From Acinetobacter phage vB_AbaM_ME3, in sequence record KU935715.1: a stretch of 64,000 bases of DNA; one strand, written 5' to 3'. This document shows positions 8,783-51,962 of the stretch, in pieces (position 1 is the first letter of the stretch; every line of letters starts with the position of its first letter). The notes under the pieces were generated by a model. The model ran no database searches. It was not told the origin of the DNA and was given only the letters and a program-made list of their open reading frames with translations. A program made the position numbers and the translations under genes.

Positions 8783-11700
8783 TCAGAAATTGCTAGCATC
8801 AATATCTTCTAAAGCTGGTTTCCATTCAGTAGCTTTATTACCTCTTTCGTATTGAACTCTAGAGATATAATAAGTACCTGCTGCTGCTGCATAGAGTACA
8901 ATATTAGGATTAACTGTAGTCTTAGTTAAAGACACAGTATATCTTTTCCAAGTAGTACTTAAAGGAACTACTGAAGTTCCAGTATGACCTTCATTAGATA
9001 CATTCAAAGATATAGCAGCACTAGCCTTAGCCCAAAAGGATACTACTATAGGAATCCCAGTTTCTTTTAATAAATTATTAAGAGTTCTGTAAATACCTTG
9101 TCCAGATCCAGAAGTAACCATTCTCAAACATTTAGTAGCACCATTTGGAATAGTAGTATCTGTAAAGATATCTACAGTTGGTGTACCATTAGTTGTCCAA
9201 TCGTTTCTATTAACTTCAAAAGAAGAGTTAAATAAATAGTTTCTACTTCCAACTTCAATTGAATCAGTATAAGCATTAGCTCTTGCTACATTTGCATCTG
9301 CAATAGCTTTTAATAAAAGAGTTTTTTGATCATAATAATTCGAGAAGTTAGTCTGGAAAGTTGTTCTAACAATATCAGAAGTGGTATTTAAGTTAGTCAG
9401 TATAGGAGTAATGTACCCATTAAGAGTATCATATCTACTATTATATAAACTTGTAGAAACACCTAGAGTATCTGCTTGTTGAACAAGAGTTGGTTTTTCT
9501 TTAACAATTTCATCCCAAATAACTTTAGTATTCTTTTTCTCTACAGGAGTTAATTTATTATCAGCTGCAATGTCAGATAAGGTAGAATTAATTGAAACAA
9601 TTTTATTCTCTGTATCTGCAATAGCAGGAGACCAATCTGTAGCCTTATTACCAATTTCTAATTTAACAGCTTTTGCAAATAGTGCTGCCGCTGTACCACT
9701 AGTTGTAGACCCATTATTATCTATTCGTATATACCCAACTTGACTAGAAGCGTTCGTTTTAAACGTCCAAGTGATATATTGATAAGAAGTTGTTAAGTTT
9801 ATTTTAGTAAATTGGTAAGGTGTACTACCACCTAACCAATAAATATCCATAGTAGAGAAAGCGCCACTACATTTAAACCAACCAGAGACAGTATAAGTTG
9901 TATTAGGATTTAAAGAACCACCATCAATTAGATAGCTAGGTAAGTAAACTTCAGTCGTACCTGTAGTACTTACTGTTCTTTCATCTCCAGAAGATAATAA
10001 TAAATTAGTACCTCCAATAACAAGATCATCAACTTTTTTCTGGGCACCAGCTTGAGTCTCAAATAGATCCATATTCATTACATATGATCTATCTGTATAC
10101 ACAGTCATATCTGATTCCCATGCAATACTCCAACCACCTTGGAAGGAATCTGGAGGATTAGTATGAGTAATAGCAGCTCTGTCAACATATACAGCTGGAT
10201 AACTCCAACTACCTGTTTTTTCTATAATAATAACAACATTCTTATTTGCATCCAAAGCAAAAGAAACGTTAGTAATATTAATACCTTTAGCTGCAACTCT
10301 TTGGTTAGCAGGAAAAGGATTAGTTGTAGTATAAGCATAAAAACCTATATCAATTTGAAATTGAGCATCAGTATTAGCAGTATAATTATACCCAGTAATA
10401 GTTAAATCACACATATAAGCACTAAGCTTAATAGGTGTATGAATTACTAAAATATTAGAAGATCCACCATTTAATCGAGCAGATGCTACTTTAGTAAATA
10501 CTTTACCAATTCCACTATCTAGTCTTTCAATATTATTACTTGGTATTTTAGCTGCATACATTTCATCTACTTGACTACTTAAAGTAGTAGGTGTTGTAAA
10601 GCCACCATTACCAACTCCATTATTAACAATAATATCAATAACATGGGTACCAGCTGTTACACTAAATGAAACAGGACTAGTTGTATAGCTAGTTGCACTA
10701 AATATTAAGTTACCATCTAAATAAATAGCATGAGCATCATCACCAACAAAATTACCTAAATTAATAGTTTTTGTAGTATTTACTGTAAATATAGCTCTAT
10801 GATAGATTACTGAATTTAAATTAGTACTAGTCATCGTGCTTCCATCATTTGCATAATAGGAAGACGTTGTAGGGAACAGATTAATATAAGAATAATCAGG
10901 TACTACATTTATAGATAAATAAGGTTGAGTCTTACCAGCAACAAACACTGCCCATTGATTAGATTTAGAATAATCAAACTGATTTGGTAGCATATTACTA
11001 CCGACAGATTTATTAATATTTAAAATCTGATCATTTAACGTAGCACTAATTTCAGCAGGATTATAACCATTTTGGAAATTAGTACTAGAGCCAACAGTAA
11101 TAGCATCAGCTCTTATTTGAGAAGCTGTAATACTATTTGCAACAATTTGAGAACCATCAATTACAGTTGTAGTAGTGCCATAAAGTAACCATTCATAAAT
11201 GTGATTACCGACATTAACACTATTACCATTACCATAAAGTCTAAAGTATCTAGCTGTAACACCTGGATAGAAAGCATCTTCAGTAGAAACAGTTTGGTAT
11301 TTAACTCCAGCACCATCACCTGTAGAAGGATTGCTTGTACTCCAACCAGTATTAGTAGAATTACCTGCAAAATAATTCCAAGTCACACCATCAATAGAGT
11401 ACTTGATTTTATACCAATAATATCTTGCGTCTTGAGCATACCAATATGCAATACTTTGAGTAACTGCATAAACAGCGCCAAGATCAACTTCAATATAATC
11501 ACGTTCAGTACCACTATTTGAACTGTTTCCAGTACCAAAAGATACATAAACAGAACCAACTTTATAGTTACCATCATTAGGAACAGTTGAAGTAGATGTA
11601 CTACCATTTGAATTAATAGTATAAGTTCTACCAGCTGTTAAATTACCAGCTTTTGATGTACCACCTTCTAATACAATTTTATCTGTAGTTAACGAATTAA

Positions 11701-14700
11701 TCTGAGCAGATTTAATTGTAGCATTAGCAATAAGAACACTATCAATATAAGTACCAGCAGGAACAGGTGTTCCATTAATAGTACCTGGAGAAGTTAAAAC
11801 AATGAATGGTTTTTTATTAGATGTTGGAGAACCAATGTAGAATTGATTTGCCTCAACAGCAAAAGCTGAAGTAGGTGTTCCATTATTAGCATCTGCAATT
11901 AAACCGTAACCAGCAACCAAACCACCCGCATTAACTTTAACAGCATACTTAGCTAAAATTCCATCAGGGCCACTAATAGCTTCATTCACAACTTGAGTTT
12001 GAGCTTGAAGCTCTGTAGCACTCTTAACAAATGCAGTAGCCACTTCACCTTGCTGTAACATAACATCTGTTACAATGAAGTTAGGAGCATACCCAGTAGG
12101 TGAATAAATAATAATATTAATATGCTTTAAATCTGCAATAGTTGTAAAAGTAAAAGTAAGACGACTTGGACTAGTAGTATTAATCGCTAACGAAGTACTT
12201 AATTGACTATTAGAATTTGCAGAGTTAAGTCGATGAATAATAACATTTACATTCTTATTATTTGCATCTAAAGCTTGAGCATAAAACGAAAGAGTATACT
12301 TAGCATTAGATAATAATAATTCGTTACCAGCACTAGTTATAGTCTGAATAAGCCCTTTAAAAGCTGTAGTTGTATCAGTACTATTAACTAAACACCAAGT
12401 CTTGCCATTCGTATCTTTATAAGCTGAAATAGCTGTACCTGAATTATTTCTCCAACCGTATAAACCATTAGTAGTATTACTAAAATTACCATTAGTAATA
12501 ATATTGTCACTACCAATACTTGCAGAAAGAGTTTTAATCTCTTGAGCAATAGCTCCATCAACTCCAGCTTGAGTAAGATACTTAGAATCAATTTGAGCCA
12601 TAGTAGGCTTAGCGGCATCTAGATTCTTAATGTCTGATTTCCAAGGGGACCATCCAGTAGTACCTACCGAGAATCTAGTATGAGTATTTAAACTATCACC
12701 AGCTGTCCAAACTTGAATGATATAACCGCCACTACTGTCATTCCAAGGAATTGTAGTTTCTAATACACCATAACCTGTAATGCCACCAGGAGAACCTATA
12801 GCAGAACCAGTTTTAAATTCTTGTACTTTACGTCTAGGATAATTAGCCCAATACCAACTTGGAGGTTGGTTAACATCTCTAGTATCTGGTAGTTGTAAAG
12901 CTTGCGCAATGTTAGAAGCAGAAATAGTTTGAGCTCCAGCTGCAATAGCTGTATCTGCGTCAGCTTTAGTATAGTAATTATTCATTACAGTACCAAAAGA
13001 ACCTATCAGAACTTCATTTCTATTTGGAGCATACATTTTATCTACTAATGTACTCAATAACTTAGTAAATCTAAAACCACCAACACTGGCATTATTGTTA
13101 ACGAGCACATCAATAATATTCCAACCAGCAGTTAATGTAAATGTAGTATCTACAGTCTCCATTGCTGAACTTATACTTGATTTAATTAAAATTCCATTTA
13201 CATATAAGCCCCAAGCATCATCACCTTGCATTGGTCCAACATTGATAGTTTTTCCAACAGCTACATATACTCTAGTTCTATAAGCACCAATTTTTCCAGT
13301 TGGAAGCGAAAGAGTTCCATTACCTACCGCTGTAGATTCTGTAACGTATAGAGTTGATTCTATAGAATAAGTATTAATAATACTATAAGTAGGAGCAACT
13401 GCTACATAAGCTTCAGGTCTTACAAAGATAACACATAACCATTTATTAGCTTGAGCAAAATCAGGATTAACTGGAAGACGACCATTATAACCATCTACAG
13501 TAAAAGCAGATCTTAACTGTTCGTATCTAAATGCTTGAGCATCATCTTTAGTAGTTAAAGTATCCATCTGACTTTGATAGTCAGCTAGAGTAGACTTAAT
13601 TGCTGGAGGAACATCATCATAGTCTGTTAAATCATATGCCTCAATAGAAGCTAAATAAATTTCTAAAGGACTATCTGTTGTCGGGCTAGGAGTAGAGCCT
13701 GTTGATTTATTGAAATAAACATGACCAGTAGTACTAAACGTACCAGTTGCGCCACATTCAATTCTTCTAATATAAGTCTCATATCTTCCTGTACCTTTAT
13801 TATTCCCAATAAATACATTTCGAGAGTCATTTCCAATAGCATTAGAAGCTGGCAAAACAGTCCACCCTTCAGGAAACTTCATAATATATTTTACTAGAAA
13901 TACAGCATTAGCTCTTGAGTTAATATTTTGATAAAACCCTGCCCAACCTGGAGAACTCAATGTTGAACTTGAAATTTTCATTTCAAAACCAGATGTAGTA
14001 GGATTATCAGAACTCTTTGCTACTCTAGCAGGAACAGTTCCTGAATAACCATTTACACTATTTGTGCCTACTTTAAATGTAGGATCTGCATATAATAATT
14101 TGCCACTATTAAATGACCTAGCTAAATATCCAGCATCTGATACATCTTTAGTTAAAGTGGTTGTAGTTGATTCTAAGTTAGTTATCTTAGTAGCTTGACT
14201 ACCACTCATACCAACAGCAGTATTAATATTATCTATTGCTGTTGCTGTTGAATCTAATTGACTATCAATATCAATTGCAGCTTTAGACCAATCAGAAGGA
14301 ATATTACCTACTTCATATTGAGCTCTACTTACATAGAATGTACTTGCAGCAGAACCATAAATTCTTACTTGAGGTATACCCGCACTAATTACTTTAGTAG
14401 TGAAGAAGTATCTAGTCCATGTAGTACTTAACGTTGCTTCATATGTACTGATATCGTGATCACCAGGAAGTAATCTAACTTTAACTCCAGCTGTATCTGC
14501 TTTTAACCAAACACTAAATGTTATCTCTGTACCAGCAGGTACATTATAAGGTAACGGTCTAAGTATTCCGTGTAAAGTAGCAGTAGTTATAACTTTAAGA
14601 CATTTAGTTGCAGTGGTTGGAATAGTAGCATCATTAACTATTGTTAATGTAGGAGTACCATTTGATAACCAACCAGTTGTATTCACTTCAAAAGAGGAGT

Positions 14701-17700
14701 TAGGTATTAAGTTTGCACTACCTACTTGTAGTGTACTCTTAAAATCAGAAATCTTACCAGCAGTAGCTTGATCAGCTTGAGTCTTAGTATAATACGCATC
14801 AATAACTGTAGCATCTAATTTAGTTTGAACTTGAGCAACAGTAGCTACAGTATTATCTGTGTCATCAGCTGACAATAAGGCTCTTACATGGAAACCTTGA
14901 ACCTCACCTTTATACCCAGAAACTGTATGGTTAATAAAGAAGCCAGGAGAGAATTGAGGATAAATATCTTTTTGAGAAGTTAAATCAAAAATCATCTCAA
15001 CAAATTGCCAATTACCATCAGCAGTAACAACTCTACTTGCACTCGAATACTGAGATGTAGTTCTAATACCATTAGGTTTAATTAATAACCAGTTAAAGCC
15101 ACAACTACCACCACTACCAACTTCTCTTCTCATCCAAACAGAAAATTTATAAGCTCTATTATTAGGAAGAATAGTTCTAGAATAATTCCAACAGTTAGCT
15201 ACTGTAGTAGGTTTACTAAATACATAAGGACCTACTTTACCATCAGTAATAGTAGTAAAATAGTTTGTTAAATCATAGCCATAGTGAGATTGCCATTCAG
15301 AAACTAATTTCAAATTATAATCAGCTGTTAAAGAATCACTATCACGAACAACCTCAAGTTTAGAACTTAATTTAGTATCAATAGCTGCAATAGCTTCATT
15401 AGTACCAGTCTTCGTATAATAATTATTAAGGACAAGAGCATCTACTCTAGGACCTAAATTATCAACTAAAGATTTAGTATTCATTGCTGGATACATGTTA
15501 GTAACTTGACTTCCTAGGGAAGTAGCTACAGATACATTTTCATCTCCAGTACCTTCATTAACAAGTAAGTCAATACAATGCCAACCAGCACTTAAAGCAA
15601 AGGTAACAGCAGTACCACCAGAAGATCTAGGAACACTATCATAGACTTTAGTGTTATCTACATACATAGCAACAGAACAGTTATTAGTCATTGCACCTAA
15701 ATTGATAGTCTTAGCAGATGTAACATTTACAAATGTTCTATATGCAATAAAGACATTATCATGAGTACTTGAAACTAAACTTGTACTACTTCCAACATAA
15801 TTAGAAGTAATAACTGTATTCGCAATTAAATGTTTATATTCAGGAATTACAGTTTCAGCTTCACCACCACGTTTAGTATAAACAACTTTCAACCATTTAT
15901 TAGGTTCTTTATCATCATATTCAGTAGGTAATGTTAATTGAGGATAAACAGAACTTTCTACTGTTGTAATACGTTGATTAATAGCTGTATCTGCATTAGT
16001 TGTAGAAGTTGCTAATGTAGTAATTTTTCCATCTAAACTTCTATCAGCATCTGCAAATTCAGTACGAACATTAGTAAAGCTTTGAGCAGTTGCTAATTTA
16101 TCTGAAGCATAAGTACTTTGGAAAGTAGTTAAATCAGCTGAAGTTTTGTTAAGAACTTTAACTATAGCTGGAGTAGATTTATCAAACGAAGTAGCTCTAT
16201 TACCAAGTTGTAATTGAACTTGTTTAACTTCATACCAATCACCAGCAGCAAATGCTCCAGAAGGAACAGAAATAGCAAATAATTGATTAGTAGATCCAGT
16301 AGCACCTAAATTAGCTACAGTTAATGTTCCAGTGACAAATTGCCAATTAGGAGTAACTGTAAATAATCTATTAGCTATAGTGGCTCCATATGAATATGCA
16401 TACCAACCTAATTGTTTAGTTACATTAGATCTAACCCAGAATGAAACGGTTAATGAATCACCTATAGCAGGTTTAGCATCCGCTACTAAACAACTATGGA
16501 AATAAACTCGTGCTAACCCATTAGTCGCATTTGCACTTACAAACGTTCCTCTATAATATTCTTGATCTCTATCGATCCAAGAAATTGTAGTGTTACCCCA
16601 TTCTTGAGCTGCAACACCATTGCTTTCTAGTGACCAAAGATTTTGACCACCAATCGTCATATTCTCAAACGACGATTTTACAGTATTTAAGGTGTTAGCT
16701 TGAGTATCGAATGCAGTAGTGTTTGCAGATTGATAAGATTCAACTTTTGAATCAATAGCTCTAATTGTATTTACAAAACTAGAATCAAATGGAGTAGGTC
16801 TTGAGCCTTTCTCAATTTTAACATTTCTGATTTCATAAGTACCAACTAATCCAGCAAATCCAAAATGAATACTTGGAGTTGTATAATTAGCTGCAAAATC
16901 ACGAACATGATAAACTCTTCTCCACTTTCCAGCCTCTAGAGTTTCCCCTGTAAGAGGTGTAGTGGCAAGATAACCCATTTGAGTACCCCAGTAGACACTA
17001 GGACTACCAATAGTACCACCAGAAGTAATACGTATATCAAAAGATACACATACTTTATTTCCAGTAGTACATAACTCAAATAATCTAGGTAACTTAGTCA
17101 TATCCATAGTACCACTAACGTAGTTCGCAGCAGCATTAGTAGAGACAACTGTTAAAATAGTTTTATCTGAATTAATAGAAGATGTTAATCCTGCTTCTGC
17201 TGTTCCAGCTGCAAAGAATTTTCCTGGATCATCATAAAGATTATCACCACCTAAAATCATACTATTAAAGGAAGTTGTTAATTGACTTAAACTTTGAGCA
17301 GTTGCACTATTTGCATCTGTTGAAGTTTGTTGAGCTTGTGCAATCTTAGCATCAGTAGCTGTGACATTAGCTGCAAACATTGCATCAATGTCGTAAGGAC
17401 TCTGACTCCAATCTGTAGGCTTAACATTCAATTCTCCATCAAATAATACAGCCCAATGAACGGTAGCTGTAGTTGCAGCATCAGTTCCACTAGGAAATAG
17501 ATAGAAAGAGATATTACTACCAGCACCAGCTGATGTACGAGTAAACGTAATCATTCTGATTTGCTTGGTAGCATTAATTACTTGATTTGCAGCAACAGTC
17601 GATAAACCCTGACTGCCATTAACCCATGCTCCAACATATGAAGTTGTATCAGCACCACCTCTTAAATGAGAAGCACAGAATACTAAAGTATATTTTTCTC

Positions 17701-20700
17701 CAACAGTTAAAGCACCACCACCAATATTATAAGATCCGAAACCATAAGTAGTCCCAGCTCTAACAAGGGCGACATTAGAGGCTATTAATCTATTTTTACC
17801 ATTACTAGTTAGATTACTAAATTGAGTATTAATATTACTGAATTTAGTAGCAGTTGAAGAATCTAAATTAGTAACAACATCAGTTAAATCTTGAATCTTA
17901 CCTAAAGCGACAGTATGGTTATTAGTAGCTAATGTCTTAGCATCAGTAGCTACAGTTAAAGTAGCGGCATTTGCATCACTAGCAGCTTTACTAACAGTAT
18001 TAATCTTAGCATCAGTGGTAATAAACTGTTTACTAATTGATGTATCACTTGCCCAAGGACTTGGATTATTATTATCACCTATTCTAACTTCCAACATCAT
18101 TTGCTCTAAATAAATAATAGCACCTGATAACCCAGTAGGGTTAGAAATTAATAAAGGACAATACGTACCATCAGCCGTAATTTCTACAACTTGACTAAAA
18201 CGTTTTAACGACGTATTAAGAACATGTCTTACACGAGGAGAAGCCACTGTACCATAGATATTAAAATCAATTGGCATACTAGCTAAATTAGATTTAGCAT
18301 AGAAACTAAAGATATAAAAACCTTTAGTTAAGAATAAATTTCTAGTTGTGTAAGCTCCAGCTTCGTTAAAATAGACACCACTACCAACTGAAGTAGTCGG
18401 AGATAAGGTATATCTATTTACTGTTGGATTTTCATAACTAGGTTCAACAACAAAGGTAGTCCCTGAAGTCCAAGGAGGATTAGGAACACCAATAGGAGCA
18501 GATATACTTAAAGGTAATAAATTAACACCACCATTAGGCATAGTAGAAAACTTAGTATCAATAGTTCCAAATTTAGTTGCTGTTGAACTACTTAAATCTG
18601 ATACAGTTGAAGTTAATGTTGCAATAGATGAGTTAGATGCAGCAACATCACCTTTTAATTCAGTTCTGTAACTTTCTAAACGATCTGCTACAGCTTTAGT
18701 TGCATTTGCGGCTACAGTTTTAGCATCATTAATCTGAGCTTGAGAATTGATATAATCTTGCTTTGTATCCTGATAAGCAGGAGTCCAAACAGAACGCTTA
18801 GTTCCCAATTCAATTTGTACGTTACTAATTTTAACAATAGAAGTAAAATTATTACCATTAGCTTTAACAGTAATATTATAAGGACCAACTGTTGAAGAAG
18901 TAGAACAAATAAATGCAAAGTCAGCTACTTTGTTTACAGCATAAGGAAACCCTGCTAAACCATCTTTAACATTATCAACATACATTTCCTCTACTATAAT
19001 TCCATTATTAACTCCAATACTAACATCATTTAAAGTACCAGATTCAACTTTAACTTTAAAAGAGATAACAAATTTAGTATTAATTGGAAGAACAGTATTA
19101 ACAAAAGTATTAATAACTCCTGATGCGTTACTTGAACTCTTAAAGGAGTAAGCATACTCTTCAGGAATAGGAGTAAATAATGAAGGACTTCCAACACCTA
19201 AAGCATCTTTAAAGATCCATAAGTTAGGAGATGACATTAAGTTGTCTCTCTTAAACCCAGCCTTTAAAGTATTAATATCTGTAGATGTTGTTCCAGCTAA
19301 ATTAGTAATAGATTCTTGAAGATCAATAATTGCTCCAGATACCTCTGTATCTAAATCAGATACAGTTGTCTCTAGTGTGTTTAATCTAGAAGCTGATGAA
19401 GCAGCACTAGAAGAAGTAGCATCTAACTGAGATCCAAGACGAGCTTGTGATGCGCTAACAGGTAATAAACTATAAGGAGATAATGATTGACCTTCAGCCC
19501 ACTTAGAAGGGTTAGGATTTGTTCCATACTGTTGTTCTAACATCATACGTTCAATGAACATAGGACGACTAACTGTAGATCCAGCTGCATTTACAACAAA
19601 ACGAACAGTATATTTACCAGCAGTAGTAACATCAAAAACTTTAGAATATCTTGTAAGAGACGTAGCTAAAGTAATGGCTGTATTATCTAAAGCATTTACA
19701 ATATTACTTGCGTCTCTCATTAAATTTACAGAAATGCTTTGATTCGTAATAGACGAATATGCATAAAAACTAAGAATATATTTCCCAGGGTTTAAATCTG
19801 TAAATTCAGCTACAAAAGTGCTAGGAGAAGTGGCTAAAACAACATTAGCTGCTTGGTTAGGATCATACCTAATACCTTTTAGTCCTGTAACGATTGTACT
19901 GTCATATAAAGCAATAGTGTCTGTACTACCTGAAGGATAGAAATTACTTACATCTACAGGATTAGTAACTTTACTACTTAGTAAATTAATTCCAGAGTTA
20001 GGAACTGTAGTGAATTGAGTAGTAAGTCCAGAAATTTGATTAGCACTAGCTGTATCACCATCAGTAATTGCTTTAGTTAAATTAACAACAGTTGCGTCGA
20101 TCTTACTGTTTAATACCTTAGGCATTTCTTTATAGTCAGACCAATCAGTCGGCTTATTACCTAATTCAATCTTCCATCGACTAATGATTAAACCACCATT
20201 AATAGAGTCAGTATGAAACTGAATATTAGGTACAATATCAGTTGTTAAAGGAGTAGTTAAATTAATAACTTTATAGTATTGACACCAACCACCAGAAGAT
20301 AAATTTCCAATAACTCTATCAAAGTCTACATAATTGTAATTAGAAGCTAAGAATAATCTTGGTTTTCCTGTAGGTACTTTAGTAGTATCAACAGCTTTAG
20401 CCCAAAAACTAAATACAATAGAAATACCAGTAGTGTTTCTAAAATTATCAGTAGTAACTTTTAAATCAGTATCAGCACTCCAATAATTAGTTATATACGT
20501 ATAACCTAAAGTAGTAGCTGGATCTTGAATAGTAAGCTTTAAATACCCTTCAGGGGTAATTTCTCTTAATAACCTAGAATTACCTACAGTACCAACACGA
20601 AACTTATCTGTATAAGCTGCTAAATTAGCACTACCAATAGTAAAATTGTCAAATGTACTTTGTAATGTATTTAGTTGACTAACTGCATTACCTACAGCAG

Positions 20701-23700
20701 TTGTTCTATTAGTAGTTTCAGTAGCAATTAATCCTCTAACAGCAACATCATTATTTTCAATCGTTGTAGTAATAGATGTTAATTGAGAACCAAAAGCTTC
20801 ATCAGCATTAGCTCTAGCAGTAGCTTCATTAGTTACAGCAGCATTAACTTGATTAATAGCTTTTGTTGTTATCCAACTAGGTTTAGTATACGCTGAAGTA
20901 ACTGTTCCTTGTTGTAACTGAACATTACGAATTTCAAGTGTTTTACCAACTAAATCAGTAGCAGCTACATTGTTATCAGATGCTACATATCTAATACCTA
21001 ATAAACCATCATAAGAATCTGAAGGAGTTCCAGTATTTGTATTTATAAGATTGTTAAGTCTTACAGTAGTCCATTTATTAACTTCTACAGTTTGTAGAAA
21101 ATTAGCAATCGGATTTGCTTGTCCATAGATGTAAACAAAAACTCTAATCTTAGAGTATGCAGATTTAATTTCAAAAGAAACAGAATGTGGCTGTTCTAAA
21201 TTAATTTTAGACGGAAATTCAGTACTTTTTAAATTTCGCCATAAATTGCTAAAGATTCCACTAGATTGAGCAGTAATCGTTAATTTCTGATGTTGTAAAT
21301 CAGAAGTCATCATTTCTTTAGTAGCAGTACCGTAATCAGAACTACCTGAATTACTAAACCACCATAAATTATCTGTCCCTACTACATTACTTCCAAAAGA
21401 AGCTTGTAAAGAATTAACTTGATCAACTACAGTATCAATAGCTGTAGTTCTAGCTGTTCTCTCGTCTACAATTAAACCTTTTACTGCTACATCATTATCA
21501 TTGACTTTAGTAGTAAGAGCTTGAAATTGACTAGCAAAAGATGCCTCACTTGTTGTAATAGCTTTATTGATTTCAATAATAGAAGCTTCTAAATTACCAT
21601 TACTAGAGACCCAATCAGATGGAGCTGTACCAGTGCCTATTTGTTTTTCCACCATAATCATATCAACTAAGATATAATTATTGTCAGAGACAGCTTGATT
21701 ACCAGTATCACAATAAATTAAAAGATATCCACCTTCAGCTGGTACAGTATTAGGTACTGTAAGAACTGAAGAATATCTTACTTGGGTAGTCGTTAAAGCT
21801 ATTTCAGGACCGTTAATATACAAACCTGAGGATGCTCTAAAAGCAAATTTAAATTTAGTTCCAGCGATTCCTGCTTTAACATAAGCAGATACAATATAAC
21901 TGGTATTAGGTTTTAGTCTTAAATTATCATAAGTAGTTATAGTTTTAGCAAAAGCTAAATAACTGTTAGCTCCAGTCCCAGTCTTTTTAATCTTCCATTG
22001 TTTAGCAACAGAAGGATCTCTTAATGTACTAGGTTCTATTGTAGGAGTAACTGCATTAATTGTAATACTCTTAAGTCCTACAGGATCACTATATTCAGCA
22101 GCTAATAGGTTAACACCACTTCCACTAAAAGAACTCTGTAATAAACTTACAGACTGAGCTAAGGACTGGTCTGCATTGGATCTAGTTGTAGCCTCATTAC
22201 TAACTAAAGAAGACGTAATGCCTTTCTCTGTTTCAAAATCAGATCTTAACACTTCTAATAGTTGAGCATTACTTTCAATATCATTTGATAAAGCTTCTTT
22301 TTCAACTTGAATAATAGATCTAGTTTCAGTATCTAATGTTGTAAATTCAGTTCGAACTTGATCAATCTCTTGAGCTCTAGCCTGAGTCTCATCAGCAATA
22401 GCAGTCTGCAATGAAGAAATATTAGCATTACTGATAACTTCTCTATCTAATACATCGAAAGGAGATTCGATCCAATCAGTTGTCGCTATAGCATCTCCTC
22501 TCACTAACATCGCCCAATGTACAGTAGCTGTACCTGAAGTTGTAGCTTGAGGATAATAATAAAAATTAATTGTTGAAAAATTATTAGTTGTAGGAGTAAA
22601 AGTAGTCTTAAATACCTTCCTTACACTTCCTTTAGTAGTTGTACTAAAAGGAATAGCTACAGATGAACCTTGCCAACCTCTAATCTCAGCAGGAGCTGAA
22701 GGCTCAGAAGAAACATCATGAGTAATACATGCAATTAATGTATATTTCTCATTAATTACTATTGGCTCTCCAATAGTATATCCACCAATTAAATAAGTTC
22801 CAGCAGTACGAACTAGAGCTACATTTGACTTTTTAAGAAGGTTCTTACCAGCTGTATTTAAATTAGTAAAACTTGCATCTAATGTATTTAGTCGAGTAGT
22901 AATTGTTCCAACTTGAGAAGTTCTAATATCTCTTTCTTCAGCAATTAATCCTCTAACTTGAGTATCATTTGATGTAACAGTTGCACTAAGAGCTTCAACA
23001 GTACTAGCTGTAGCAGCACTTTGAGTTGCAGTAGCATCAGCTTTTTCAATAACACTAGCTAAATTAGTTTGCATAGTGCTTGAATCAGTTTCTAATGTAT
23101 CAACACGAGCATCCAGTGCTGTCATTGTAGAAGAATTGGCAATGCCATCTTCAATACGAGTAGTAATTTCTTCTCTTACGTTTGCAAGTGCTGCATCATT
23201 ACTTGTTTTATAATTAGTTATATTTTGAAGTAATTGATCATCACCAGAGATACGAGCAGTTGCTTCGTTAGTAATACCATTTTCTAACTCTGCAATTTTT
23301 CCTAATCTATCAATTTGTTCTAATGTAATGTCTCCAATAAGATCATTAACATTATTCATAACAGTTGTATTATTAGAATTTATTTGACTATTAACATAAT
23401 CAATCATCTCTTGAGTGACAGTTCCAGCATCAATACGGGCATTAAGGTCGTCAATCTTTTGAGATAAGATATTAATATCTTCAATAGCTAAATTATCAAT
23501 TTTAGCATTCAACTGTGTTACAGCAGTTCCTACTTTACTATCAATAGCAGCATTACGATCAATTACTTCCTGATTAAGATCAGCAATTAATTGATCAGTT
23601 TTACTTGTAATAACCCCTTCAATTCTAATAAACTCTGAATTGTAATAAGCTGCCTTAGCATCTACATCAGCTTGAACAGAGTCAATTAAAGTATTAGCAG

Positions 23701-30453: not shown

Positions 30454-30909
30454 TTAGGTTCTATAATATCTATGTAATGTATCATTGACAGACACTTTTC
30501 TATATTTCCAACCAGGATTAATTGATCTTGCATGGAAGAATACAGCTCCATTTACAGTATCAATTCTTTTACCTTGTTTCTCAGATAAGTATAAAGATTC
30601 AGCTAATTCTTTAATTCTATTAAAAGTTGACTGATCTTTAACACTTAAACCTCTACAATACCAAGGGAATTGACAAGCATGTTTTCGATCTGCTATCACT
30701 CCACATACAGTTTTAGGAAAGGCTTTATGTTGTGTTCTGTTAATAATCGCATTACCGATATTAATCATTTCATTAGAATCTCCACCTCTAGCTTCAAAAT
30801 ACATTGCTTTAGCTAGACATGAGATTTGTGCATTCTCAGCTTTTGCTTTAGTAGATAACACTACAAATGCAATAGTAAGAACTAAAAATGTGATTAACTT
30901 TTTAATCAT
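30454..30909 (-). CDS. SleB-type cell wall hydrolase with signal peptide (probable endolysin)
   Basis: 151 aa; N-terminal signal; AMYFEARGG...NRTQH...CQFPW characteristic of the SleB/Hydrolase_2 family. Confidence 0.7.
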   Translation of the reverse strand: MIKKLITFLVLTIAFVVLSTKAKAENAQISCLAKAMYFEARGGDSNEMINIGNAIINRTQHKAFPKTVCGVIADRKHACQFPWYCRGLSVKDQSTFNRIKELAESLYLSEKQGKRIDTVNGAVFFHARSINPGWKYRKVSVNDTLHRYYRT

Positions 30910-41788: not shown

Positions 41789-42232
41789 TCAGGCAATAAT
41801 CCGTTCAATAGTATCTCTTAAGTTTATTTCAACATCAGGATAAAATTTTCTCATTTCTTGTCTTAATTTATATAATCGTCTTTTTGGATTAATACTTAAA
41901 CCATATTTATAATAAATACTATTATTAATTTTTATTTCAAATTCGTATAAAAAGATAGTTTCTAAAGGTCTACGTTGAACTGTAGTTTTATTTAAAAATC
42001 CACTTTGGTTATTTCTAGAGCATGTAGGACAATTACTTCTAGATTGTAAATAGTCATTAGTGCGTGGTGTCCATGTGTTAGAACATTTTTTGCATTCTAA
42101 TTTTATAAATTTAGCATACTCTTGATAACTTCTAGTTAATAAAATGTATAAATCATCTTGGATAACTTTAGAAAGAATTGTAGAATATTTTAATAAATTA
42201 TAAAAATTAGATTTTTGAACTAATGCGTACAT
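41789..42232 (-). CDS. zinc-ribbon + GIY-YIG-like endonuclease segment (homing-endonuclease-like), possibly 3' half of a frameshifted gene
   Basis: CKKCSN...CPTC zinc ribbon; FLYEFEI...YYKYGLSINPKRRLYKLRQE resembles GIY...YIG...R...E. Confidence 0.45.
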   Translation of the reverse strand: MYALVQKSNFYNLLKYSTILSKVIQDDLYILLTRSYQEYAKFIKLECKKCSNTWTPRTNDYLQSRSNCPTCSRNNQSGFLNKTTVQRRPLETIFLYEFEIKINNSIYYKYGLSINPKRRLYKLRQEMRKFYPDVEINLRDTIERIIA

Positions 42233-42630
42233 GAACTAACTCCCTTAACAAAATCATGAAATAAGGGAAAATAAATATTACCACATGTCTTATGAACTAG
42301 AGCTAATGATATTTTAGTAGTAATTTTAGATAAATCTTGATAGATATATTCATACTCTGAAAAAGTTGTATCAATATAAAGTTTTAAATCCTTTTCTGAT
42401 TTAAAACGTCTTGATTTTTCATTACAAACGCCTGACGTAAGTTTACAATCATTACAGAATTTAGGCTTATTATAAATCAAATTAAACCAATTACTTATAA
42501 CTTCTTTTTGACAAGTATTACAAATTACTAGTATTTTAGATTTGACATTTTTATAAGGTTCTACTTCTCTAATAAATGAAAAACAATTTTCACTTTGAAT
42601 AATCATTTTATATTTTTGAATTTGAAACAA
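42220..42630 (-). CDS. zinc-finger protein, possibly 5' half of the same endonuclease gene
   Basis: 136 aa; CNTC...CNDC; 13-nt overlap with 41789..42232; immediately 3' of group I intron core. Confidence 0.4.
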   Translation of the reverse strand: MFQIQKYKMIIQSENCFSFIREVEPYKNVKSKILVICNTCQKEVISNWFNLIYNKPKFCNDCKLTSGVCNEKSRRFKSEKDLKLYIDTTFSEYEYIYQDLSKITTKISLALVHKTCGNIYFPLFHDFVKGVSSCTH

Positions 42631-42660
42631 ATCTACTCCTCTATATTTCTATAGATGTTG

Positions 42661-42915
42661 AGACTATATCTTCATCCTATTAAATAGGAGTTTTATGTTT
42701 CCCTTTAATCCGTTCGGAACCACTTGGCGGTAGACCTAAATTTAATTTAGGAATTACTAGTCGTTGAACCTTCCTCTATATTACTAGAGGCTTGGCTGCT
42801 GATTGTCCATTACAAAGAATATATTAATATATTCATCTTCTTTATTTTCAAACATTCACGCTCATCTTTACAGATCACGTTGTAGTTAAAGAAGCTTTAG
42901 GAGTTTCCAGCAATT
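42661..42915 (-). ncRNA. group I intron catalytic core (P, Q, P6, R, P8, S elements), IA2-like
   Basis: P AATTGCTGGAAAC (42915-42903), Q AATCAGCAGC (42804-42795), P6 hairpin CCTCTA/TAGAGG, R GTTCAACGACTAGT (42769-42756), S GAAGATATAGTCT (42673-42661); P/Q carry compensatory T/A changes preserving P4. Confidence 0.6.
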
Positions 42916-43383
42916 AATAAAATTTTGTCGACTACATTACTGTAGAAGGTGTCAATCTATTATTTAACACTACTGAAGAAAGCGCTCATATTGACGTGTG
43001 ACACCGTCATAATTGTTAACAAGAGTTTCTTTAATTATCTCTTTTCATTTCCTATCTAAAGTTTGGAAATAGTTCAGACTATCTAATCACCTTCAACAAC
43101 AAATATTTGCTTTGTTAAGGTGTTGGGCGCTCGTGGAGAGGTTATTGTTATCTTACTCACTCTCTAGTCGTTTAACGTTCTTGTCTCTTAATTAAGATAA
43201 GACAAGCTTCGCACAGTGTCGCCTACTAAGCTTCCACTGTTAGCTACAATATATAAATATAATAATGATACAGACTATTGGAATCTAACCAATTCATCCT
43301 AAGTTTACAAAGATGTTTCCCAACATTCTAAGCTCTTGGGGCGTTCACCTTTCACCAAGTCTGCATTACGAATTATCTCGGAT

Positions 43384-43461: not shown

Positions 43462-43477
43462 GTAATACCGAAAGAAT

Positions 43478-43562
43478 TGGCATCGCCTGGAGGAATCGAA
43501 CCTCTCACGTCCTTCCTGCTTTTTACGTACCAGCTTAGAAGGCTGGTGCAGGGGCAAGCGAC
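43478..43562 (-). tRNA. aberrant tRNA-like element, anticodon TCT, no recognisable D-arm
   Basis: 3' end AGAGG-TTCGATT-CCTCC-AGGCGAT-G-CCA; anticodon stem CCAGC/GCTGG, loop CTTCTAA; 5' acceptor GTCGCTT with two G-U pairs. Confidence 0.3.
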
Positions 43563-49650: not shown

Positions 49651-49851
49651 TTAAAATTCACTGAATGGTTCAGGATCTTCTTCATCTGTTGAAACTTGTT
49701 TAAAGTACTTACCATTGTACCAGCCTTCAACGTCTTTTAACTTATAAAAAGTTTCAAATACTTTTATATCTTTTGCAATAACTTCATATTCAACATTCTC
49801 TTTTATTTGAGAACATTCAAGTGAAACTCCAGCTTTAAGGATTACAATCAT
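49651..49851 (-). CDS. hypothetical small acidic protein
   Basis: 66 aa; stop overlaps upstream gene. Confidence 0.4.
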   Translation of the reverse strand: MIVILKAGVSLECSQIKENVEYEVIAKDIKVFETFYKLKDVEGWYNGKYFKQVSTDEEDPEPFSEF

Positions 49852-50222
49852 TTTAAATCATCCTGATTCTTTAATAGGTGGCATTTAATTTGAGATAGGC
49901 TTTCTTTAATATCTTCTTGTTCCTCATGAGTAAATTCATTTCTATTCTTAATTAAAGCAGCTAGGATATGACTAATGACAGAAGGTATGATAAAGAAAAT
50001 CCAAAAATGACCACAGACAATAGCTAAAATCTTTCCTGCGATAGTGTGAGGAGAGTAGTCACCATAACCAATAGTAAGAGATGTAACACAAGCCCAATAT
50101 AAAGAGTCTAGATATGAAACACCTTCCAATAAAGAAAACAGTAAAGATGCTATAACTAAACTTAATAGATAAGCAAGAAATACATATCTAATATTATTTG
50201 CAATTAATAGAAAATAAGCCAT
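49848..50222 (-). CDS. minimal 2-TM potassium channel (pore helix + TIGYGD selectivity filter)
   Basis: 124 aa; TM1, then YWACVTSLTIGYGDYSP, then TM2; matches KcsA/Kcv-type architecture. Confidence 0.75.
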   Translation of the reverse strand: MAYFLLIANNIRYVFLAYLLSLVIASLLFSLLEGVSYLDSLYWACVTSLTIGYGDYSPHTIAGKILAIVCGHFWIFFIIPSVISHILAALIKNRNEFTHEEQEDIKESLSQIKCHLLKNQDDLK

Positions 50223-50362
50223 GAAATTCTCAAATATAAATAATTAAGAAGATATATGTAGTCCCTAAGGCACGACATCCACTTGTTTAAATTAGAGAGA
50301 TCGTCACCTCTCCCAAGCCGCTCTACTACATTGGCGTATACATATATCTTATTAATTATTCA

Positions 50363-50794: not shown

Positions 50795-51033
50795 TAGTAT
50801 CTCCTAATGTACAGCTCTTCAGCAATATTTTAAAATTGGATCCTAGATCATTCACCTTACAATATAGACAAATCTAGGAAAATCTATATCAGGGTGCTAA
50901 TGAGAGGGCTTGCAAGCAGTGGTCACATCTCTAGCTGCTTATACTCCGCAGAATATAAGTACCGCGACTCAACTGGTGATCAATGCGAGAAATTTATTAC
51001 ATTGTCATTATTCCAGGAGTAATCTTTTAAATT

Positions 51034-51337: not shown

Positions 51338-51709
51338 TCATGTTTGTAGAGTTTCCTCTAAAACCACTCTAATATATTTTTGTCTATAATGAGATTCTAT
51401 ACGAAATTCTAAAGGAACTGATACTTTAAATCCTTGAGGTATCACAACTGAGTCTTTAACAAAATTTAAGAAATCTACATCACTAGGAAATATTTGTCTA
51501 TATTTTAACTTAAGAGGAACAGATACAATCCAATAATTATGATTAGGATGTAATTTAATTTCATCAATTAGTTTCTGATTAATATAATCCTCTAATTCAT
51601 TCTTAAGCTTATTAAAATATTGTTTTTTATAGTCATCATAGGTTACATAACTAGTGTTTTCTATGACTTTAGATCTTAGTTCTTTAAGAGTTTCTAATGC
51701 AGTTTTCAT
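51338..51709 (-). CDS. hypothetical protein (start trimmed to Met at 51709; upstream part of the track ORF overlaps a tRNA)
   Basis: ORF-track 51338..51847 N-terminal 46 codons coincide with tRNA-Ser; internal MKTALETLKEL start. Confidence 0.45.
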   Translation of the reverse strand: MKTALETLKELRSKVIENTSYVTYDDYKKQYFNKLKNELEDYINQKLIDEIKLHPNHNYWIVSVPLKLKYRQIFPSDVDFLNFVKDSVVIPQGFKVSVPLEFRIESHYRQKYIRVVLEETLQT

Positions 51710-51726
51710 AGTATACTCGGAGAATA

Positions 51727-51819
51727 TGGCGGAAAAGGAGGAAGTCGAATCCTCAAGGCACTTATTCAGTACTCGACGCATTTCAAGTGCGCTGCCATCG
51801 CCAGTTGGCTTGCTTTTCC
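51727..51819 (-). tRNA. tRNA-Ser(TGA), type II with long variable arm, CCA encoded
   Basis: GGAAAAG acceptor pairs CTTTTCC; 3-bp D-stem with GG in loop; anticodon stem GCGCA/TGCGT, loop CTTGAAA; T-arm GAGGA-TTCGACT-TCCTC; G discriminator + CCA. Confidence 0.65.
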
Positions 51820-51827
51820 ATGTATTA

Positions 51828-51962
51828 TTTTTTCTTTTCGTTATCATTATTACAAGCTGCGTTGCTTAAAGAACTGCACTTACTTTTAGGACCATCGAAA
51901 AACAAAGCATTTGTAATAGTAGGAGTAATAGAAAGAATAATTATAAATATAACATTTTTCAT
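51828..51962 (-). CDS. possible 44-aa secreted peptide (signal-peptide-like N-terminus), not in ORF track
   Basis: MKNVIFIIILSITPTITNALFFDGPKSKCSSLSNAACNNDNEKKK; speculative. Confidence 0.25.

Follow-up and report, generated by a model that had tools for sequence, protein, structure and literature searches.

We examined a 64,000-nucleotide (nt) stretch of the genome of Acinetobacter phage vB_AbaM_ME3 (ME3; sequence record KU935715.1), hereafter called the window, and in particular a gene at positions 49848..50222 whose predicted product is a small potassium channel. The list of open reading frames (ORFs) places at this locus a 124-amino-acid (aa) ORF with an ATG start on the minus strand, the strand that carries all ORFs longer than 100 aa in the window; the plus-strand translation of the interval is riddled with stops. 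An earlier note on this DNA, made from the sequence alone, had the coordinates right but left the strand unstated. The complete protein reads MAYFLLIANNIRYVFLAYLLSLVIASLLFSLLEGVSYLDSLYWACVTSLTIGYGDYSPHTIAGKILAIVCGHFWIFFIIPSVISHILAALIKNRNEFTHEEQEDIKESLSQIKCHLLKNQDDLK, and the peptide quoted in that note, YWACVTSLTIGYGDYSP, corresponds to its residues 42-58.

The channel gene is already known and has been catalogued since 2018, so the novelty that the earlier note implied does not hold: Greiner et al. (Viruses 10:456, PMC6163359) list AND75308.1 of vB_AbaM_ME3, with 124 aa and two transmembrane segments (TMs), among phage K+ channel genes, and the protein is also covered by PHROG 14690. The row labeled “Ap” in their Fig. 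S1B (SLVIASLLFSL.EGVS-YLDSLYWACVTSLTIGYGDYSPHTIAGKILAIVCGHF, ending at residue 73; PMC6163359) is identical to residues 21-73 of the window's protein except at one residue (T for L32), and it agrees with the window at V23 and I61, which are replaced by T and V in P0001, a metagenomic relative with 95% identity. Together with the ORF list and the matches to Pfam PF07885 and phrog_14690, this row identifies 49848..50222 as the complete coding sequence of AND75308.1. The same study names Pseudomonas phage ventosus ATW58311.1 (PMC6163359), a protein that is 54% identical to the ME3 channel by tblastn. Greiner et al. listed the ME3 gene and remarked on its similarity to Rheinheimera, without giving a structure or subfamily signature, analyzing its context, or testing its function, and they termed the suggested functions of phage K+ channels speculative (PMC6163359). 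New here are the signature of the subfamily, the finding that the gene moves alone outside lysis and defense modules, the purifying selection acting on it, and its chromosomal relatives in bacteria.

An AlphaFold2 (AF2) model, built on an alignment of 71 homologs in which conservation was also counted, has a mean predicted local distance difference test score (pLDDT) of 90.3 and assigns five helices (residues 2-9, 11-33, 37-48, 61-95, and 99-123) plus an extended loop, residues 49-60, that holds the filter. Kyte-Doolittle hydropathy gives two hydrophobic spans, with sliding-window centers at about 14-29 and 69-84. Following the minus strand, the coding sequence begins with a short N-terminal helix (residues 2-9, 50196..50219), likely an interfacial or “slide” helix in the model, which is followed by the outer helix TM1 (residues 11-33, 50124..50192), which coincides with a hydropathy peak and ends in E33, invariant in the 71 sequences. 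Next come the pore helix (residues 37-48, 50079..50114), which aligns with that of NaK2K and carries the aromatic pair Y42-W43 (W43 being at least 90% conserved), and the selectivity filter T50-I51-G52-Y53-G54-D55 (50058..50075), read directly from the sequence and conserved among the homologs. The inner helix TM2 (residues 61-95, 49938..50042) bears the sequence G71-H72-F73-W74-I75-F76 and, further on, P80; the last element is a predicted cytoplasmic C-terminal helix (residues 99-123, 49854..49928) that is preceded by F97 and has the motif FT(H/D)EEQE at its start.

Database and structure searches agree on what this fold is. Pfam PF07885 (Ion_trans_2) matches the protein with 53.8 bits against a gathering cutoff of 22.5 (E = 1.8e-14), and PHROG 14690 aligns residues 1-121 with positions 1-121 of its 122-position profile (E = 2.3e-57), with phrog_7872 as a second PHROG match (E = 5e-19). 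By phmmer, 277 K+ channel sequences in the PDB match at E ≤ 1, including the NaK2K, MthK, TOK, K2P, and Kv pores, with best E values of about 5e-12 to 5e-11. Foldseek searches with the AF2 model return NaK2K, MthK, KvLm, and KcsA at a probability of 1.00, with target TM-scores of 0.81 for the MthK pore and 0.84 for the KvLm pore module (4h33; root mean square deviation of 1.8 Å). The channel signature T-x-G-(Y/F)-G-D with its pore-helix aromatics is present as T50-D55 with Y42-W43, which gives an intact K+ filter with four sites, and because the Pfam, PHROG, PDB, and homolog matches are all strong, a chance occurrence of the motif is ruled out. The protein is thus very probably a two-TM, pore-only K+ channel, and by analogy with the superfamily it would insert into a membrane as a K+-selective homotetramer. 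The two-TM, pore-only architecture with a TIGYGD filter that the earlier note proposed is therefore borne out by Pfam, the PDB sequence matches, the AF2 fold, and Foldseek; its “minimal” layout of TM helix, pore helix, and TM helix is also correct as far as it goes but overlooked the short N-terminal helix and the 25-residue cytoplasmic helix at the C terminus.

PHROG 14690 and RefSeq label this family “cAMP-dependent Kef-type K+ transporter.” We considered a Kef-type or cyclic-nucleotide-gated K+ transporter and rejected it: the protein has only 124 aa and lacks KTN/RCK, CPA2, and cyclic-nucleotide-binding domains. Its Pfam matches are to Ion_trans_2 and, weakly, to Ion_trans, with none to TrkA_N, Na_H_Exchanger, or cNMP_binding, and NCBIfam yields only subthreshold pore matches. 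Judged by domain content, the label is a misnomer. The same Kef label stands on pore-only proteins of about 120 aa in phages LAh_8, BillNye, Phabba, and Myrna (L055, L056, and L057 among the records), so the error is being propagated.

The closest described pores are those of NaK/NaK2K (Bacillus cereus), MthK, and KvLm (PDB 3ouf, 3ldc, and 4h33), which are the best matches at 28-32% identity and target TM-scores of 0.66-0.84 and which have in common with the ME3 channel a short EG turret, the pore helix, and an N-terminal M0-like helix. They differ in that the ME3 filter is of the K+ type (TIGYGD, versus TVGDGN in NaK), in that the hinge glycine of NaK is replaced by W74 with an invariant proline six residues later, near but not at the Kv PVP motif, and in that the ME3 channel has no RCK or voltage-sensor domain. 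KcsA of Streptomyces lividans likewise joins a two-TM pore to a cytoplasmic C-terminal helix, and Foldseek matches include 1f6g and KcsA pores; identity, however, is only 22-24%, the ME3 protein has a much shorter turret, V46 stands where KcsA has E71 (manual alignment), and none of the pH-sensor residues of KcsA are evident. The nearest relatives of all are bacterial proteins annotated as “potassium channel family protein” (approximately 120-130 aa; Rheinheimera, Undibacterium, Shewanella jiangmenensis, Ramlibacter, and Piscinibacterium), which resemble the ME3 channel in length and architecture at 39-51% identity. Both have TSLTIGYGD, GHFWIF..IP, F(T/S)xEEQ, and a heptad tail; the bacterial proteins differ in being chromosomal and in having ordinary neighborhoods, and we found no characterized member among them.

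Similarity to channels of eukaryotic viruses is more remote. Chlorovirus Kcv and Ectocarpus virus Kesv (EsV-1-223) are also virus encoded and pore only, with a GY/FGD filter, and resemble the ME3 channel at the level of the fold (E of 4.8e-3 to 1.2e-2, 26-28% identity), whereas the ME3 channel itself clusters with bacterial and phage sequences. The “KcsA/Kcv architecture” of the earlier note accordingly stands for its KcsA half, the nearest relatives being NaK/MthK/KvLm/KcsA-type pores and the bacterial subfamily, while the likeness to Kcv is confined to the fold. Kcv channels have 82-94 aa and no cytosolic tail and come from virions with an internal membrane; the ME3 protein, with 124 aa and a confident helix at residues 99-123, does not fit this tail-free type. 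The fold-level similarity to algal-virus channels (EsV-1-223, E = 4.8e-3; the 82-aa M1HHY8, E = 1.2e-2) would suit a channel delivered by the virion at entry in the manner of PBCV-1 Kcv, releasing K+ and lowering turgor for DNA ejection. We find this scarcely credible for ME3, because myovirus virions have no internal membrane and a membrane-free particle cannot house a two-TM tetramer; in addition, the gene lies far from structural genes (a tail-fiber PHROG at 25641..27365 and the 5,419-aa protein described below), and its homologs are bacterial chromosomal genes. ME3 is a tailed myovirus (PMC5000817). The other group of phage K+ channels in Greiner et al., those of the Vibrio schizoT4-like phages phi-pp2, nt-1, and ValKK3 (149-228 aa, TTIGFGD; PMC6163359), was not retrieved by tblastn with the ME3 channel at E ≤ 1e-3. 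By their greater length and GFGD filter, these channels are a lineage separate from that of ME3; we group PHROG 7872, the second PHROG match noted above, with them.

Conservation within the 71-sequence alignment defines the subfamily. Invariant positions are E33, T47, L49, T50, G52, Y53, G54, D55, H72, P80, E101, and Q102, and at least 90% conservation is seen at Y18, S21, F29, W43, S48, I51, P58, T60, G63, F73, W74, F76, and F97. Beyond the filter, the characteristic residues lie in TM2 and the tail: H72, P80, E101, and Q102 occur in 71 of 71 sequences and F73, W74, F76, and F97 in 70 of 71. In the HMMER alignment, W74 falls on the glycine of the NaK2K segment ...IFIGI, which is the gating hinge of NaK; since tryptophan holds this position, the subfamily lacks the classical hinge. 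The invariant P80 lies six residues past W74 and, by manual alignment, one position before the first proline of the Kv PVP motif. The tail opens with F97-T-(H/D)-E-E101-Q102-E and continues with hydrophobic residues at I105, L109, I112, and L116 (hydrophobic in 97-100% of sequences at positions 105, 109, and 112 and in 72% at position 116), whose 4-3-4 spacing is that of an a/d heptad and suggests a short four-helix bundle below the pore. TM2 past residue 75 together with the tail has no sequence match in the PDB, and the tail searched alone against the PDB has no significant relative and gives chance matches only; a likeness of the tail to the BacNav neck/coiled-coil domains was considered and dropped on account of those chance matches. 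H72, P80, F97, E101, and Q102 are retained from ME3-like phages through Rheinheimera, and the actinophage versions have lost GHFW and kept P80 and (F/W)TxxEQE. We therefore regard these proteins of about 115-190 aa, found in large lytic phages and in Rheinheimera and Undibacterium chromosomes, as a distinct channel subfamily by sequence.

The tryptophan at the hinge, the invariant histidine and proline of TM2, and the F-T-x-E-E-Q ring at the cytoplasmic mouth invite a bolder proposal, namely, that these channels gate in a mode new for two-TM channels, with a proline-kink gate under the control of pH, divalent cations, or polyamines at the acidic ring, and would serve large lytic phages, whose hosts span two or more bacterial phyla, as a regulated valve that sets the membrane potential of the host and so excludes competitors or blunts membrane-based abortive infection. 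We consider this proposal, suggested by sequence features, decidedly unlikely.

Phage K+ channels of this type are rare, as the earlier note had supposed. Searches with tblastn (E ≤ 1e-3) found the channel in 33 of 50,697 phage records, a count that includes numerous GenBank/RefSeq duplicates, and IMG/VR added only six further good loci. Identities are 47-54% in Pseudomonas phages of the ventosus/phiPsa types, 43% in Aeromonas phages LAh_6/8/9, 42-44% in Streptomyces phages BillNye and Wakanda, and 37-38% in Mycobacterium phages Myrna and Phabba, with a few Firmicutes phages besides; most of the carriers are large lytic phages with genomes of 93-235 kb. A large protein database holds 114 homologs at E ≤ 1e-3, and when 1.84 billion cluster representatives were searched with a profile, 62 clusters matched at E ≤ 1e-30; among the best 150 cluster matches, many extend over the whole protein, tail included. 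Scanning a single genome for each species revealed approximately 34 full-length chromosomal homologs, carried by many species of Rheinheimera and by Undibacterium, Shewanella jiangmenensis, Ramlibacter, Piscinibacterium, and others; the same scan found none in Acinetobacter, so the host is not an evident donor. The copies in Rheinheimera texasensis and Undibacterium have OEP, PfkB, GGDEF/EAL, PhoD, and methyltransferase genes as neighbors, which by their gene content are ordinary cellular neighborhoods and not prophages. Because full-length homologs sit in such settings, the channel does not seem to be intrinsically lethal.

Within ME3, the gene upstream of the channel encodes a 143-aa protein (phrog_20652) otherwise found in Acinetobacter T4-like phages. 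Downstream, a 66-aa ORF (49651..49851, minus strand), whose ATG overlaps the channel stop by 4 nt, is followed by ORFs of unknown function of 168, 105, 132, and 80 aa, by PhoH, and by a 340-aa protein matching a PHROG labeled DNA polymerase; ARAGORN also calls tRNAs in this region. The 66-aa ORF, which has no Pfam, PHROG, or PADLOC match, is probably cotranscribed with the channel, judging by the overlap. We rejected it as a conserved partner, as it is kept only in close ME3-like contigs and the ORF at the same position in the more distant ME3-like contig L002 shows no similarity to it. Four ME3-like metagenomic contigs, with channels 75-95% identical to that of ME3, keep this gene order, and in L002 (198 kb; channel 68% identical) the channel lies elsewhere relative to nine shared neighbor genes. 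A dedicated partner gene was likewise rejected: in an all-against-all comparison of ORFs, the channel is the sole family common to all 11 phage loci, and hence it presumably works without one. The neighborhoods in other phages vary accordingly, with glutathionylspermidine synthase genes adjoining the channel in Aeromonas phage LAh_8, tRNA genes flanking it in Streptomyces phage BillNye, ribonucleotide reductase/polynucleotide kinase genes on one side and phosphoribosyl pyrophosphate (PRPP) synthetase/NAMPT genes on the other in Mycobacterium phage Phabba, and small hypothetical genes around it in Pseudomonas phage ventosus.

These surroundings bear on a role in lysis timing, one of those suggested in the earlier note, in which K+ efflux or depolarization through the channel would trigger or tune the holin, or the protein would itself be holin-like. 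Such a role would fit a small phage membrane protein, and holins are triggered by depolarization. In none of the five phages (ME3, LAh_8, BillNye, Phabba, and ventosus) do lysis or structural genes adjoin the channel, however, and the window contains a single endolysin-like gene, an endolysin PHROG match at 30454..30909, which is the lysis-type gene closest to the channel in ME3 and lies 19 kb away. The channel is thus outside a lysis cassette, its neighbors are without lysis matches, and neither Pfam nor PHROG gives it a holin family match; with a metabolic or tRNA-rich context in four other phages and with chromosomal homologs that speak against a lethal hole, we consider a lysis function very improbable.

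A role in counterdefense would have the channel buffer the K+ loss or depolarization caused by membrane-targeting abortive-infection effectors or blunt a host sensor of ions or membrane state. The gene moves alone among unrelated phages of Proteobacteria and Actinobacteria, a pattern typical of antidefense cargo, and ME3 also carries Ter-stress genes (PMC5000817). Against this, PADLOC returns no match at E ≤ 0.1 for the channel or three neighbors, PHROG and PADLOC reveal no homology to known defense or antidefense families, the chromosomal homologs in the two loci examined are outside defense islands, and a nonselective lesion cannot be offset by a K+-selective pore. On balance, counterdefense is improbable.

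The sporadic occurrence and varying position of the gene would also be expected of neutral or decaying cargo, either a captured bacterial gene that plays no part in infection or a protein that has lost its conductance, and the unusual gate residues, with W74 in place of the hinge glycine, might be read in the same way. The channel gene is under purifying selection, however: compared with the 95%-identical gene of contig L004, the ratio of nonsynonymous to synonymous substitutions (dN/dS) is 0.20 (dS 0.154, dN 0.031). Moreover, none of the ME3-like contigs examined has a disrupted ORF, the filter and signature residues are invariant across relatives with 35-95% identity, and the unusual residues are traits of the whole subfamily, common to its bacterial members, rather than lesions. 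Neutral or decaying cargo is thus quite improbable, and the gene is, on comparative evidence, a self-sufficient accessory gene that is kept by selection and passes between large lytic phages, with relatives in free-living bacteria.

As a whole, these observations are best explained by a K+-selective, tetrameric leak channel in the host inner membrane that acts as an auxiliary gene of host physiology, a reading to which we assign a probability of roughly 0.6. The channel would be produced during lytic infection by ME3, a jumbo phage, and inserted in the Acinetobacter inner membrane, where four subunits would form a K+-selective pore with both termini in the cytoplasm and the C-terminal helices probably bundled beneath it. 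With no sensor domain, it would be a largely constitutive or weakly regulated leak, its open probability set by the Pro/Trp/His region of TM2 and by the acidic tail. Such a leak would draw the membrane potential toward the K+ equilibrium potential (E_K), and as long as the cell stays energized, at a potential more negative than E_K, K+ would reenter electrophoretically; in this way the phage might maintain cytoplasmic K+ and membrane potential, or reset them, once DNA entry has caused its ion leak and throughout a long replication cycle. Microbes deficient in K+ uptake are rescued by pore-only K+ channels of viruses and bacteria, since the negative membrane potential drives K+ inward through the open pore. 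Infection by T4 and T5 disturbs the K+ conductance of the host (cited in PMC6163359). We infer the timing of expression, the direction of flux, and the physiological role. Maintaining or resetting host K+ and membrane potential during infection is the role that we rate as likeliest, although at somewhat less than even odds, because the context is metabolic or tRNA rich, the carriers are large phages with long cycles, and the chromosomal homologs are nonlethal.

The same molecular device could instead serve superinfection exclusion if a channel made early were to clamp the membrane near E_K and so lower the potential that later phages need for DNA entry. Chloroviruses reportedly limit multiple infection through Kcv-driven depolarization, and the ME3 gene does lie within a nonstructural accessory block. 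With low external K+, however, E_K is still strongly negative and a K+-selective leak depolarizes little; no known exclusion genes lie nearby, and PADLOC gives no match. We consider exclusion unlikely.

Several points weigh against the leak-channel interpretation itself. No functional experiment on any phage K+ channel was found in the literature searched. A tryptophan in place of the hinge glycine and an invariant histidine in TM2 make both open probability and gating stimulus unpredictable, and the direction of net K+ flux is set by external K+ and by cell energization, so that uptake and efflux with depolarization are inseparable by sequence. Scans for sigma-70 promoters and for terminators around the channel did no better than in shuffled sequence, with no terminator found, and inspection of the intergenic regions by eye revealed no recurrent promoter beside the channel. 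Finally, the sporadic occurrence among phages, with shifts of position even among ME3-like phages, is the pattern of a dispensable accessory gene. The ME3 channel, if it conducts, is a compact (124-aa), partner-free phage tool for manipulating bacterial ion balance and would offer a tractable entry to the question of why some large phages carry K+ channels.

The gap of 140 nt upstream of the channel (50223..50362) holds a structured RNA-like element that may be more novel than the channel itself. ME3 and L004 are 98% identical across the gap and differ by 14% at synonymous sites of the adjacent gene, and the gap folds as a long hairpin (free energy of −42.5 kcal/mol, z = −3.3). Based on folding, conservation, and covariation, the element, about 100-125 nt in length, extends over 50236..50358 in minus-strand sense; it occurs once in the window. 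It is carried by five ME3-like sequences, by L002 and the related contig L003, and by 14 IMG/VR contigs, with relatives at L004 7865-7987, L058 2054-2177, L059 2863-2984, L061 1197-1314, L002 12197-12300, and L062 4207-4304, and at L063-L075 (13 more IMG/VR loci). The 14 IMG/VR carriers are Acinetobacter baumannii-type temperate phages, in which the element comes after tRNA-Arg(UCU) and a partial match to Pseudomonadales-1 RNA.

An invariant core of approximately 45 nt (ACGCCAATGTAGTAGAGCGGCT ... AGTGG(A/T)TGTCGTGCCTTAGGGACT) is enclosed by an outer stem whose two strands are wholly different in sequence among three lineages and yet complementary in each (GATATATGTA/TACATATATC, GACTGGATA/TATCCAGTC, and GAAGTGAA/TTCACTTC), 6 of its 12 pairs being altered on both sides. 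In the inner hairpin, the stem and the closing pair covary (U-A, G-C, and A-U) around a conserved GACG loop. Overall, 95% of the cells are paired, versus at most 45% once the partners are offset by one to three columns. Rfam has no family matching the element at E ≤ 10, a metagenome scan gave no match, and blastn of both variants of the element against GenBank phages gave none; we consider it a candidate for a new family of phage noncoding RNA on the strength of these covariation patterns.

A riboswitch or leader for the channel was considered for the element and rejected. In L002 and L003 the element occupies the ME3-syntenic site and the channel is 5.9 kb away, which argues against its being a channel regulator; in L061 an extra ORF intervenes, the temperate phages have no channel nearby, and the element is absent from the other channel-bearing loci. 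By synteny, it is by chance that the channel gene came to lie beside the element in ME3. The motif TATATTGTAAGGTGAATGATCTAGGAYCCAA is conserved between ME3 (at approximately 50800..50835, upstream of the 143-aa gene) and L002 (12160..12190, directly upstream of the structured element) and is a candidate phage promoter or regulatory site.

Several other features of the window deserve mention. Its GC content is 27-35% throughout, about 30% on the whole, and the genome announcement for ME3 gives 40% overall (PMC5000817); the published value is thus incorrect unless this third of the genome has an unusual composition. The announcement also describes a “massive” 5,419-aa protein (ME3_104), thymidylate synthases (ME3_107/108), and a cell wall hydrolase (ME3_113) (PMC5000817). 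In the window, ME3_104 is the 5,419-aa ORF at 8783..25042 on the minus strand, and a thymidylate-synthase PHROG at 27753..28493 and the endolysin PHROG at 30454..30909 follow the giant gene in the announced order. A 574-aa protein (25641..27365, minus strand) precedes the 5,419-aa ORF in the order of transcription and matches a tail-collar-fiber PHROG (E = 2.6e-185), and its N terminus also matches a “host range and adsorption protein” PHROG of 5,292 positions. From these matches, the two proteins look like a giant adhesin or fiber module.

A group I intron on the minus strand (42639..42975) matches the full model of Rfam RF00028 with 81 bits and lies just downstream of a tRNA-Leu/tRNA-Met pair; two cysteine-rich ORFs downstream of the intron (42220..42630 and 41789..42232) could, from their sequence, be a homing endonuclease. 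ARAGORN calls a tRNA-Ser(UGA) at 51727..51819 on the minus strand, within a listed 169-aa ORF (51338..51847). PHROG 29568, with its complete 124-position profile, covers only residues 47-169 of that ORF, and since the match begins at residue 47, the gene probably starts at about Met47, which would make the tRNA-Ser(UGA) intergenic and genuine. When 20 kb of the window were compared with GenBank phages by megablast, the sole match was a 78-nt segment (43475..43552), which has 88.5% identity with a stretch of Acinetobacter phage vB_AbaM_B9 that carries no annotation. This segment adjoins the tRNA-Met, and ARAGORN calls no tRNA there; the segment may encode the fourth of the tRNAs reported for ME3 or some other small RNA.

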